Below, one piece after another: positions 13,063 to 15,875 of a stretch of 64,000 bases of DNA. Position numbers and translations under genes: made by a program. Where the stretch lies: assembly GCA_003244255.1 (NCBI GenBank), contig QHCD01000006.1, positions 18,894 to 82,893 of the forward strand. Direction: 5' to 3'. The DNA is from Pseudonocardiales bacterium (GTDB taxonomy: Bacteria > Actinomycetota > Actinomycetes > Mycobacteriales > QHCD01). The notes below the pieces were generated by a model, which was not told where the DNA came from, did not search any database, and saw nothing but the letters and a program-made list of their open reading frames with translations. Numbering within the stretch: position 1 is the first letter of the stretch; every line of letters starts with the position of its first letter.

Positions 13063-15459
13063 TCACGGCGGTGGGGCCGGCAGGCCGGCCTTCCCGCCCG
13101 CGTACTTCTGGATCGCCGGGTCGTGCAGCCACGCCTCGTAGGCCTGCAGCTGCACCGAGCTCATCCCGCTGATCGCCATCGGTTCGTGACTCGTGGGGTC
13201 GATGAAGTTCGCGTCCTCAAAGTAGGGCGGCTCGTCGAGGGACTTCGTGAACTTCTTGATGTACTGATCGGGAGACCCGTCGTAGCGAACCTGGTGCCCT
13301 GGTGGACCGACCTCGACGACGGTGTTGTGCAGCCGGTGGCCGTCAACGGTGGTGAAGTAGCCGTTCGCGGCGTCCTGATAGCTGGTGATCTGCTCCCCGC
13401 TCACCTTGCCCGCCAGGCCGTCCAGCGTCGACTGCACCGCGTCGATCTTCTTCTGTGCGTCGTCCTCCGAGCTCTGGTAGGCGAGGTTGGTGACGTAGTC
13501 GAGTGCCTTGTCGGTCGCCATGCCGCCGACGACGCCGACGACCGACTTCGGATCCTCGGCGATGCCGACGATGGTGCCGAGGATGGACTTGGCCTTCGCC
13601 TTGTCGTTCTCTATGTTCTCCAGGTTCTTCTGCAGGCCGCCGCTGGCACCCTGCAGGTCCTTGAGGATGAAGGCATTGAGCTGATAGCCGCCCATCGTCG
13701 CCAGCGGATTTTCGGCGCCGGAATCCTCGGATCCGTTGACGTACACCCCGGTGTTGTCGGCCTGCTGGTTCAGCCGGTTGACCTCCTGGCTGGTCATGGT
13801 GGTCAGCGCGGCGGCCGTCCCCGGGTCCTGCATGATCTCGGTGTCGAAGGCGGCCCACGCGCTCTGGTTGATGGAGATCCCGTTGCGGTAGGGGCGCGCG
13901 TCGGTAGACCAGCCGTCCTCGTTCGAGGGCAGTCCGTCATGCGGGACGGCGGTCACGCTGTAGACCATGTCGCTGAAGAACGCCTTGCTGGTGGCGAGCT
14001 GGCCGAGCGTCTTGCGATAGAAGTCCTGGTAGTGGTCCTTCGGGTTGGCCGCGGTGTCGAGCACGATCCGGCGCATCAGCGCGTTGCCCTCTTGGGCGTC
14101 GAAACCGCCGTTGCGCTTGCCGTCGCCGTTGGAGTCGGCCATGCCGATGGTTCCCGCCTGGACCATCGCCGAGAGCTGATCCTGGAAGAGCGGCGACCAC
14201 ATCTTCGCCACGTCGTCGCTTCCCCGGCCCAGCTTCTGCAGGACGGCGAAGCTGGTGTCGTCGGAGAGGACCTGGTTGGATGCCTCCGGGTTCTTGCTCA
14301 GCTGCCCGAACAGGTTCTTCAGCAGGTTCGCCGCGTACGGGCTGTCGGTACCGTTTGCGGAGATGTAGCCGCGGCGGTAGAGGTTGTCCTCGATGTTGCC
14401 GCCCCTGCTCATGCCGTAGTTCAGATCCGCGAACACCTCCTTGCCGATCAGCGTCTGCGTCCCGGTCGGAAGCAGCGACTTTCCGTTCGAGTCCGTTTGC
14501 ATCAGCGGCACCAACAACGGTCCGTCGAACCCGCCTACGTCGGTCTGCAACTGGTATGGCAGATCCTTGTCCGGGTCGAAGTTGTCCAGGAAGTCCTGGG
14601 TGATCAGGCCATGCTTGCCGGCGACGGTGAAGGTGGACTGCATCGCGGCGAACAGTCGCTTGGCGGTAGCGGGGTCTTGCTGGTATTGCGGGTCCATGCC
14701 GTTCTTGGCGACCTGCGACATGGCAGCGATGCCTTGCGGGCCGAGGCTGCCGTAGAGGCCCTTGACGAAGTCCGGGTCGTTCTTGTTCTGCTCGAGGATG
14801 GCGAGTTCTTCTGGCGTGATCTTGCCACTGTGTTTGAGGTCGTTCTTGATCTTGCTGGCGGCGTCCTGGCCGGCCTTCGTGCCGGCCGCGGAGACGGCAC
14901 TCTGAATTTGCTGGCTGGTCCAGGTGGCCAGAGCGGCGGGACTGCTGGGGGCCAAGGTGTCGCAGAGGGAATCGATATTGGCCGCCGAGTTCTTCGCCGC
15001 CGCCTTGTACTCGGCGAGCAGGGTCGCGTGCGCGTTCTCGATCCGGGTGACCTCGGCGCTGGCCGAGGTGCGCTGGTTGTCCAGCTTCTTCTGCGCCGAC
15101 GCGTCCGCGGCCGCATCCCCGGACTTCGCCGCGGTGCCTGGGATCCCGGTGAGTGCCTGCTCGGCTCGGGTGTGCTCGGCGTCGAGGCTCTGGAACCGCT
15201 GCTTGTAGTCGCCGTACTGGCCGGCCCAGTCGTGCAGGAATGTGCTCCCCGCCGACACCCGGTCGGTGTACTTGCCGAGCAGTCCCTTCAGGGCCTCGGC
15301 TCGCGCGACGGCGGCGTTGTTCGCAGCGCCCGACCATCCGCTGGTCTGCACACTGTCGAAGCCCTGATTCGCCGAACCCAACGTCGACGCCACGTTGGTA
15401 CCCGTGCTCGCGGTGCCGTCGATCGTCGCAGCATCCGCCTTCGGAACCCACAGCGTCAT
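13063..15459 (-). CDS. 798-aa protein with an N-terminal WxG-containing helical (T7SS-signal-like) domain and a roughly 680-aa region of unknown function
   Basis: ORF 13063..15693 trimmed to ATG 15459 (MTLWVPKADAATIDG...), which overlaps the upstream stop by 1 nt (TGATG). It has W42-S43-G44 (nt 15328-15336) within an Ala-rich two-helix segment, followed by WAGQYGDYKQRFQSLDAEHTRAEQAL. The rest is Asn/Lys/Gln/Asp-rich with no motif I recognise. The antisense 799-aa ORF is rejected as an artefact. Confidence 0.7.
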   Translation of the reverse strand: MTLWVPKADAATIDGTASTGTNVASTLGSANQGFDSVQTSGWSGAANNAAVARAEALKGLLGKYTDRVSAGSTFLHDWAGQYGDYKQRFQSLDAEHTRAEQALTGIPGTAAKSGDAAADASAQKKLDNQRTSASAEVTRIENAHATLLAEYKAAAKNSAANIDSLCDTLAPSSPAALATWTSQQIQSAVSAAGTKAGQDAASKIKNDLKHSGKITPEELAILEQNKNDPDFVKGLYGSLGPQGIAAMSQVAKNGMDPQYQQDPATAKRLFAAMQSTFTVAGKHGLITQDFLDNFDPDKDLPYQLQTDVGGFDGPLLVPLMQTDSNGKSLLPTGTQTLIGKEVFADLNYGMSRGGNIEDNLYRRGYISANGTDSPYAANLLKNLFGQLSKNPEASNQVLSDDTSFAVLQKLGRGSDDVAKMWSPLFQDQLSAMVQAGTIGMADSNGDGKRNGGFDAQEGNALMRRIVLDTAANPKDHYQDFYRKTLGQLATSKAFFSDMVYSVTAVPHDGLPSNEDGWSTDARPYRNGISINQSAWAAFDTEIMQDPGTAAALTTMTSQEVNRLNQQADNTGVYVNGSEDSGAENPLATMGGYQLNAFILKDLQGASGGLQKNLENIENDKAKAKSILGTIVGIAEDPKSVVGVVGGMATDKALDYVTNLAYQSSEDDAQKKIDAVQSTLDGLAGKVSGEQITSYQDAANGYFTTVDGHRLHNTVVEVGPPGHQVRYDGSPDQYIKKFTKSLDEPPYFEDANFIDPTSHEPMAISGMSSVQLQAYEAWLHDPAIQKYAGGKAGLPAPPP

Positions 15460-15773
15460 CAGATCGCCCTGACGGGGCCGCCGCCGGCCGCCGTGCCGAT
15501 CTTCGTGTCGGTCGAGGTGTAGATGACGCCCGCCTTGACGAGCGCGGCGCGCATCGACGCGGCGTTCGTCGCGAACACCGTCAGGAACGCGCCGTGGACG
15601 TCGACGAAACGCGACCACGCGGCCGCCACGTCGGAGGCATCCGCGAGCGGCGCCGAGTGCAGCGTCTTGACGACCGAGACGTGATCGGCACACGACGTGG
15701 CCACGCCCTGCAGGGCCGAGGCGGCGGCCGTCAGTGCCGGCTCCTCGGCCTTGATCGAATCGGTAGCACCCAT
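15459..15773 (-). CDS. 104-aa Esx/EspC-like helical protein with a C-terminal YxxxD motif
   Basis: ORF 15459..15830 trimmed to ATG 15773, which is preceded by GGAGGG at a 6-nt spacing. It is predicted all-helical and Ala-rich. Y85-T-S-T-D89 (nt 15507-15521) lies about 15 residues from the C terminus. It is translationally coupled to the 798-aa gene. Confidence 0.6.
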   Translation of the reverse strand: MGATDSIKAEEPALTAAASALQGVATSCADHVSVVKTLHSAPLADASDVAAAWSRFVDVHGAFLTVFATNAASMRAALVKAGVIYTSTDTKIGTAAGGGPVRAI

Positions 15774-15869
15774 CGGACCCTCCGCATACACCGCTCGAGC
15801 CAGCGGGGTCGAAGTAGACGAGCTCCCCAACTCGACGGCCTGGCCGAGGGTCGGGTTCCCAGCTCCGCC

Positions 15870-15875
15870 ATATTA
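15870..15875 (-). promoter_or_regulatory. Candidate -10 element TAATAT (minus strand) for the two-gene module
   Basis: This is the only AT-rich patch in the 170-bp gap (minus strand: gccgTTATAGtatcgcacgatttctggTAATATggcg). The TTATAG is 17 nt upstream. It lies about 95 nt upstream of ATG 15773. Confidence 0.3.

Follow-up and report, generated by a model that had tools for sequence, protein, structure and literature searches.

A probable co-translated type VII secretion substrate pair with a rare cargo family in an environmental Mycobacteriales bacterium

To our knowledge, very few substrates of type VII secretion systems (T7SS) are known outside pathogenic mycobacteria and Firmicutes. The subject here is a pair of overlapping minus-strand genes in a 64,000-nucleotide (nt) stretch of contig QHCD01000006.1, from the metagenome-assembled genome (MAG) of a Pseudonocardiales bacterium; the whole of this stretch is termed the window. 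The pair probably encodes a co-translated ESX/T7SS substrate pair whose secretion machinery is elsewhere in the genome. Among described systems the ESX-1 Esp pairs (EspC/EspA, EspF/EspE and EspJ/EspK) seem a closer analogue than either the LXG toxins or CpnT with EsxE and EsxF. The legend to S4 Fig of PMC6107294 places YxxxD/E motifs on EspC, EspF and EspJ, and WxG motifs on EspA, EspE and EspK. As in those pairs, a small helical protein with YxxxD/E is encoded beside a larger protein that has WxG and a C-terminal domain, and the cargo domains, which are not toxins, have no clear function. However, neither window protein significantly matches EspC, EspA or an Esp model of any kind, the small gene here precedes the large one, with which it overlaps, and no relation of the 600-residue body to known Esp C-termini emerges within the reach of the tests. 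The host also differs: it is an environmental Mycobacteriales MAG whose relatives come from soil and activated sludge, with no pathogens among them. The features of the pair that matter most are as follows.

15459-15773, minus strand: small partner gene, 104 amino acids (aa), predicted helix 3-40, turn, helix 46-80 and disordered tail 81-104 (AlphaFold2, AF2)

13063-15459, minus strand: large gene, 798 aa, predicted all-alpha (open reading frame, ORF, call; AF2)

15457-15461, minus strand: TGATG stop/start overlap, apt for translational coupling (sequence reading)

15778-15783, minus strand: Shine-Dalgarno-like GGAGGG, 4 nt upstream of the small-gene ATG (sequence reading)

15328-15336, minus strand: W42-S43-G44, the WxG motif in the hairpin turn (sequence; AF2; conservation)

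15148-15432, minus strand: N-terminal WXG100-like helical hairpin, residues 10-104, with helix 10-39, turn and helix 45-104 (AF2)

15507-15521, minus strand: Y85-T-S-T-D89, the YxxxD motif right after helix 2 (sequence; AF2; partner alignment)

The stop codon of the small gene (TGA, 15461-15459) and the start codon of the large one (ATG, 15459-15457) have base 15459 in common. The small protein, MGATDS...PVRAI, is 24% Ala, and the large one begins MTLWVPKAD. An original prediction, made by reading this sequence, had given the coordinates of both genes, their shared base and the two motifs, and all of these are borne out. It had also given the GGAGGG before the small gene, which is present, though at a spacing of 4 nt and not 6, a trivial difference. 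A longer reading of the large gene, an 876-aa ORF from a GTG at 15693, is rejected as an artefact since homologues start at M-[TS]-L-[WH]-[VK]-P; the additional part is an off-frame Arg-rich extension. A protein identical to the 104-aa product is annotated by NCBI as ‘hypothetical’ in the Mycobacteriales bacterium MAG GCA_036790585.1 (contig DAIQJG010000001.1).

The proposed mechanism is that of other ESX substrates. The 104-aa protein would be a helix-turn-helix with a flexible C-terminal tail bearing YxxxD, and the first ~100 residues of the 798-aa protein would be a second helix-turn-helix with WxG in its turn. The two hairpins may pack antiparallel into a four-helix bundle like that of EsxA-EsxB or PE-PPE. 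Such a bundle would bring YxxxD beside WxG, forming a composite export signal to be read by the EccC ATPase, and with the complex the C-terminal body, all-alpha and of ~600 residues, would leave the cytoplasm. Heterodimer formation, EccC recognition, export and the role as cargo are what we infer. Judged by sequence, the pair appears to work like ESX substrates, with superfamily homology that is marginal.

The N-terminal head is the part of the large protein for which the comparison is most direct. In the AF2 model of the 798-aa protein (mean pLDDT 74.6, pTM 0.63; alignment of 13 long forms of the family), WSG 42-44 sits in the predicted turn between helix 10-39 and helix 45-104, which agrees with the earlier placing of WxG between two helical segments of the head. 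W42 and G44 are invariant in all 13 long-form homologues, which are 17-35% identical to the window protein. What AF2 and the 13 homologues give is a helix-turn-helix of ~100 residues with a conserved W-x-G in its turn. EsxA-EsxB has this too, together with a partner whose YxxxD/E follows the hairpin. Unlike EsxB, which is a free protein of 100 aa carrying both WxG and YxxxD, the WXG hairpin of the window heads a protein of 798 aa, and the two motifs are split between two chains.

When a profile of the N-terminal ~110 residues is searched against 177,635 distinct PDB sequences, the top three matches are M. tuberculosis EsxB/CFP-10 (3FAV_A, 6J19_B and 1WA8_A; E 0.0066-0.0073). The alignment is full length and has the WxG in register, the family gWtGaaA falling on EsxB QWRGAAG. 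The full-length family profile has the same three EsxB chains on top. Single-sequence and small-profile searches of PDB gave no match for the large protein, nor for the small one. Relatives have sub-threshold matches to PF21725 T7SS_signal (3.6e-4 and 3.7e-3), to PF06013 (1.2e-3 to 2.7e-3) and to the WXG100 model TIGR03930 (3e-5). One protein that is related via its N-terminal region only, P0058, passes the PF21725 gathering score (29 bits vs 27), and its hhalign comparison with the family head gives E 8.6e-5 with the WxG matched. The head would be a remote WXG100-superfamily domain, of marginal similarity and short of established membership of a curated family.

The large protein has another WxG, W78-A-G80 (15226-15234), inside helix 2. 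As a signal it is treated as chance: W78 does not figure in the set of invariant and nearly invariant columns, and Phe takes its place in the homologue P0002.

For the small partner, AF2 predicts helices 3-40 and 46-80 and a disordered tail (mean pLDDT 73.8; alignment of 2 sequences). Y85-D89 begins five residues past helix 2, in the tail, and is close to the C terminus as had been noted. AF2 and conservation thus agree on a YxxxD/E directly after a helix-turn-helix, and this predicted position is in accord with the published one (PMC6107294). In all, 12 distinct partners were recovered, each adjoining a large-family gene. The Asp, D89, is invariant in 12 of the 12. The Tyr is kept in all five partners of the window's clade (YTSTD, YRTTD, YQNVD, YATTD and YQATD) and is Phe or Leu in partners of the distant clade. 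The expectation that both motifs would be conserved among homologues therefore holds for W42, G44 and the Asp, but for the Tyr only in the window's clade.

Co-occurrence of the two genes, proposed earlier as a check, is frequent. Of 14 distinct loci for which the flanking sequence was legible, 11 have a small partner next to their large gene, and the junctions mostly overlap or are of no more than 10 nt (a 1-nt overlap in L003, a GTGA overlap in L001, gaps of 9-10 nt in L018 and L019). In a further likeness to the Esp pairs, two relatives of the small partner weakly match the EspC model PF10824. This is the family matched by most partners, yet by 2 of 8 only (best E 0.0042; 17 bits vs a threshold of 23.5), and the small protein of the window does not match it. 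Foldseek with the AF2 model of the small partner returns generic hairpins only, at E > 1.

A parallel for substrates at a distance from their machinery comes from Schaalia odontolytica, where, among AesA-AesB and the distally encoded substrate pairs, Esx substrates outside the esx cluster are each beside a small WXG100-like hairpin gene (PMC13622651, bioRxiv 2026). Bipartite signals there have variant forms, FXG and Asp, and these parallel the change from Tyr to Phe or Leu in the window family (PMC13622651). Compared by description, the C-terminus of AesB is Gly-rich and disordered, in contrast to the folded helical body of 600 aa here (PMC13622651).

Distant relatives supply a physical link to T7SS genes. 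A gene for an EssC/EccC ATPase of 1,464-1,539 aa adjoins the pair, in divergent orientation, in L018, L027 and L025 (matches to EssC at 1.3e-166, EccCa at 4e-122 and EccCb at 8e-99). L018 is Ca. Phosphoribacter hodrii, to which L029-31 are near-identical; in L025 the contig ends and part of the ATPase gene is visible. Just beyond the ATPase gene, L018 and L027 have a WXG100 gene (PF06013, 1.2e-10). The core of the original prediction, an effector with a YxxxD helper forming a substrate pair, is thus supported by conservation, by AF2, by the EsxB profile match and by these EccC-adjacent relatives.

In both L018 (254-9254) and L027 (1-8720) the EssC/EccC and WXG100 genes are flanked by Tad/Flp pilus genes, namely CpaB-like, CpaE-like ATPase, TadA/CpaF and TadB-like genes. 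Since eccB, eccD and mycP are not visible within 10 kb, the T7SS locus of these two looks minimal or split.

A place immediately beside EssC/EccC is often held by components of a system. Potentially then, the large protein is a T7SS accessory or chaperone-like protein (EspK/Esp-like, with co-dependent secretion), or an extracellular or envelope-spanning part, and not terminal cargo. Its body, conserved and non-enzymatic in appearance, would suit such a role, and so would the precedent of the ESX-1 Esp pairs, in which a YxxxD protein and a protein with WxG and a C-terminal domain are mutually dependent for secretion (PMC6107294). However, the family is rare, with 60 proteins at E<=1e-3 in an exhaustive hidden Markov model (HMM) search of 1.84 billion cluster representatives, and most of its loci are far from any EccC gene, so it cannot be a general T7SS component. 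An accessory role is improbable as the whole account. It overlaps with that of a substrate pair, because such a protein would still be exported via the same signal.

The composition of the large protein was another element of the original prediction, Asn-, Lys- and Gln-rich with native codons, and it is so. N is 5.3%, K 5.6%, Q 6.4% and R 2.5%, vs 2.1%, 1.9%, 3.2% and 8.3% respectively for the window background, and GC content at third codon positions (GC3) is 0.90 vs 0.915 for sdhA and 0.88 for trpS. There is a single Cys. No signal peptide or transmembrane segment is found in the protein (maximum Kyte-Doolittle hydropathy over 19 residues, 1.31). When all ORFs of the window are ranked by K/(K+R), the large protein is surpassed only by a secreted solute-binding lipoprotein (0.74). 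This exported-protein-like composition fits export and is only suggestive.

The lipoprotein, a family-5 solute-binding protein of the opp operon (19828-21612, plus strand), serves as an internal control for exported-protein composition. Its N+Q content is 14%, its composition is like that of the large protein, and its gene accounts for the window's other stretch of low GC (62.7% at 20001-21000). No such composition is seen in the BNR lipoprotein (10667-11875).

Several observations weigh against a secreted pair. Neither tblastn (queries EssC/EccC and WXG100) nor Pfam on ~30 further ORFs found a T7SS gene in the 64-kb window, in line with the earlier statement that no machinery genes are there. 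The adjacency to EccC is limited to one distant sub-clade at ~25% identity, and no locus in the clade of the window shows it. The match to EsxB is of marginal significance (E ~0.007), the head profile does not align significantly by hhalign with the canonical WXG100 protein of L018, and at a cutoff as loose as E<=1 neither window protein matches any curated T7SS-related model of Pfam and NCBIfam. A PDB search with the small-partner profile returns no ESX protein, and hhalign with a provisional M. tuberculosis EspC sequence gives it a probability of 0.8%. By shuffling, the chance of a WxG in the first 110 residues is ~0.10 and that of a YxxxD/E in the small protein ~0.075. Foldseek on both models yields generic helical folds only, and three distant members (L013, L021 and L028) are without an adjacent small partner.

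Some of this would suit a helical scaffold that stays in the cytoplasm with a small partner bound to it, for which WxG and YxxxD would be structural and without a part in export. In favour of it are the lack of T7SS genes in the 64-kb window and of a curated family match, motifs that are individually cheap at ~7-10% by chance, a place among the housekeeping genes trpS and sdh, and closest Foldseek neighbours that are cytoplasmic HEAT/ARM solenoids. Those Foldseek matches are, however, not significant (E > 0.03, TM <= 0.2). The head has EsxB as its top PDB matches with WxG aligned, relatives are directly beside EssC/EccC and WXG100 genes and match T7SS_signal and WXG100 models, and the outlier composition is common only to a secreted lipoprotein. 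A protein that stays in the cytoplasm is rather improbable. For the secreted pair, it is motif conservation and structural position that carry the weight, because the shuffling makes the motifs alone weak evidence.

Beyond the hairpin, the large protein continues as follows.

14827-15114, minus strand: two more long helices, residues 116-165 and 174-211, lengthening the N-terminal bundle (AF2)

13066-14826, minus strand: cargo body, residues 212-798, predicted multi-helical and solenoid-like with two small beta hairpins (713-726) (AF2)

13108-13164, minus strand: C-terminal signature M766-x3-Q-x2-A-Y-x2-W-L-x-D-P-A-x-Q784 (family alignment)

Conservation extends through the entire body, both among the 13 long forms and in short forms of the family. 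M766, Q770, A773, W777, L778, D780, P781 and Q784 are invariant in the long forms, and W777 and D780 stay so with the short forms added. The body has no Pfam or NCBIfam match. Foldseek with the 798-aa model finds nothing significant in PDB, where the best match has E 0.03 and TM <= 0.2 and the neighbours are generic HEAT/ARM-like solenoids, nor in BFVD, where they are tape-measure proteins. The body was earlier said to contain no catalytic or structural motif that could be named, and that stands; nor do Pfam and NCBIfam assign the protein to a cytoplasmic family, the solenoid neighbours being short of significance. The Foldseek results are better taken as uninformative than as negative, because a fold search cannot discriminate long helical hairpins. 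PADLOC gave nothing meaningful for either window protein. Origin from a phage or a defence system was considered and dropped, as neither BFVD nor PADLOC supports it.

The nearest family with a name is DUF6571 (PF20211), on which a literature search found nothing published. In hhalign, the family profile and a true DUF6571 protein (40 bits vs a threshold of 27) align with a probability of 99.6% and E 7.7e-24 over columns 11-609 of 872, that is, over the WXG head, the helical stalk and approximately the first two thirds of the body. The region of residues 116-211 falls within this, on the equivalent part of a DUF6571 protein. The two families also co-occur in one gene array (L017). However, the C-terminal third of the window protein, with its AYxxWLxDPA motif, is outside the alignment, and the window protein has no match to PF20211 (a model of 729 positions) at E<=1. 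With a strong hhalign result and no PF20211 match, the family is a distant relative of DUF6571 and not a member.

The family itself is rare, actinobacterial and unstudied. A word-indexed search of 5.8 billion proteins found one 99% copy and one 34% homologue, and a word-indexed search with a 23-sequence profile still gave 2 matches. Genomic contexts came from Actinomycetota MAGs, an Angustibacter MAG, Ca. Phosphoribacter hodrii, and soil and activated-sludge metagenomes. The 60 representatives divide into long and short forms. The long forms (n=13) are of 800-900 aa with the architecture of the window protein. The short forms, of 600-700 aa, are without the WXG hairpin and share the C-terminal signature.

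Short-form relatives of ~690 aa have N-termini of the form FSGIDP...W..e.P.LrRR. For one of them, P0022 (L020:781-2862), the one context recovered, an upstream 102-aa partner gene (L020:392-700) carries W-V-G. It is as if the short forms had passed the WxG half of the signal on to their small partner.

In the Angustibacter MAG (L017:383-11193), three WXG-headed large genes, of 824, 821 and 940 aa, are together and have different bodies. The 821-aa protein is DUF6571 above the Pfam threshold, the 940-aa one is of the window family, and the locus has a small partner upstream and another downstream. This suggests a paralogous substrate arsenal.

Such an array recalls the arsenals of polymorphic toxins, and the layout in the window could likewise be that of a toxin with its targeting factor, of LXG/Lap or CpnT/EsxE/EsxF type, with an antibacterial or cytotoxic body delivered to competitors. 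In those systems too, a large substrate has an N-terminal helical targeting domain and small helical partners are encoded immediately upstream, as a single small helical partner is here, upstream of the WxG-headed protein. The body, however, is conserved throughout, including the extreme C-terminal motif, and there is no variable C-terminal cassette. Downstream comes trpS in the window and, among relatives, sdhC or an ORF that differs, rather than a small immunity-like gene. There is no match to a toxin, LXG or TNT domain and, by Foldseek, none to an enzyme fold. The partner is one, not two or three. Because of the conserved body and of what follows it, a polymorphic toxin is very improbable. 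The original prediction had drawn the LXG/Lap and CpnT/EsxE/EsxF analogy, and of this the layout stands; the toxin logic does not, the cargo being family-conserved, not polymorphic and without an immunity gene. A binding or structural protein of the envelope or surroundings is more likely, since conservation runs through the whole body and an immunity partner is lacking.

The setting of the pair in the window is core chromosome, with rmuC, ychF, trpS, sdhCAB, opp, folP, glgAC, sigE-htrA-tatB and mrp; the local order is sdhB, small gene, large gene, trpS and BNR lipoprotein gene. In the window's clade, which includes relatives at 33-36% identity, the pair is always in an opp-sdh neighbourhood. 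Its place is before sdhC in L001, L015 (9319-15924), L016 and L024, but after sdhB in the window (13063-19506). A functional tie to succinate dehydrogenase was considered and dropped, there being adjacency only and the side of sdh on which the pair sits differing among genomes. Recent horizontal acquisition is rejected on the native GC3 and a neighbourhood conserved at ~35% identity. Because codon usage is native and relatives have kept the opp-sdh neighbourhood, the evidence points to an old chromosomal resident, shuffled locally.

One Logan contig (L003) has a 64%-identical small partner (1687-1989) with a frameshifted large gene. There, a trpS remnant of ~50 N-terminal codons and a BNR lipoprotein gene precede the pair, an order unlike that of the window, due either to local rearrangement or to a chimeric assembly. 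In L024, with a relative of 33% identity, the large gene and sdhC are separated by a 96-aa ORF (2647-2937) that neither the window nor L015 has.

Upstream of the pair is one further feature.

15859-15898, minus strand: AT-rich patch of 45% GC, containing TATAGT and TAATAT, within the 170-bp intergenic space that follows sdhB

An AT-rich patch before the pair had been pointed out originally, and the GC content of this 40-mer is indeed tied second lowest across the window. It may be the promoter of the pair, as a candidate by position and composition; a scan for sigma-70 consensus promoters found nothing.

Elsewhere in the window, a DUF222 protein (6951-8051, plus strand; PF02720, E 1.3e-19) is encoded among the housekeeping genes. 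We take DUF222 proteins to be the 13E12-repeat/HNH-type family of actinobacteria; the DUF222 match alone is seen here. Rfam found nothing in 12-17 kb of the window, and a tRNA search of the window found none.

The arrangement is one already known in kind; the cargo family is rare, unstudied and without a recognisable fold. It is tempting, though on balance doubtful, to see in the family, its short forms and DUF6571 one large class, so far unrecognised, of T7SS cargo proteins that are folded and are not toxins, in environmental Actinomycetota, with a new all-alpha fold and a plastic bipartite signal. The plasticity is suggested by the change of Tyr to Phe or Leu in sister clades and by the WxG that is seemingly on the short-form partner. 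PE/PPE proteins act as mycomembrane channels, and were such a class real, the place of the pair beside sdh and opp could likewise reflect a role in the envelope or in nutrition.

Orphan ESX substrates that HMM libraries miss can be revealed by motif position, conservation and the neighbourhood of distant relatives taken together. The natural signal variants, with Y, F or L before an invariant Asp, are usable to probe what EccC reads. Through the pair, the uncharacterised Pfam family DUF6571 is linked to type VII secretion. To the T7SS of soil and wastewater Actinomycetota the pair adds a rare, probable substrate family missed by curated models, with a conserved, folded, non-polymorphic cargo of ~600 residues that points to a role other than interbacterial poisoning.

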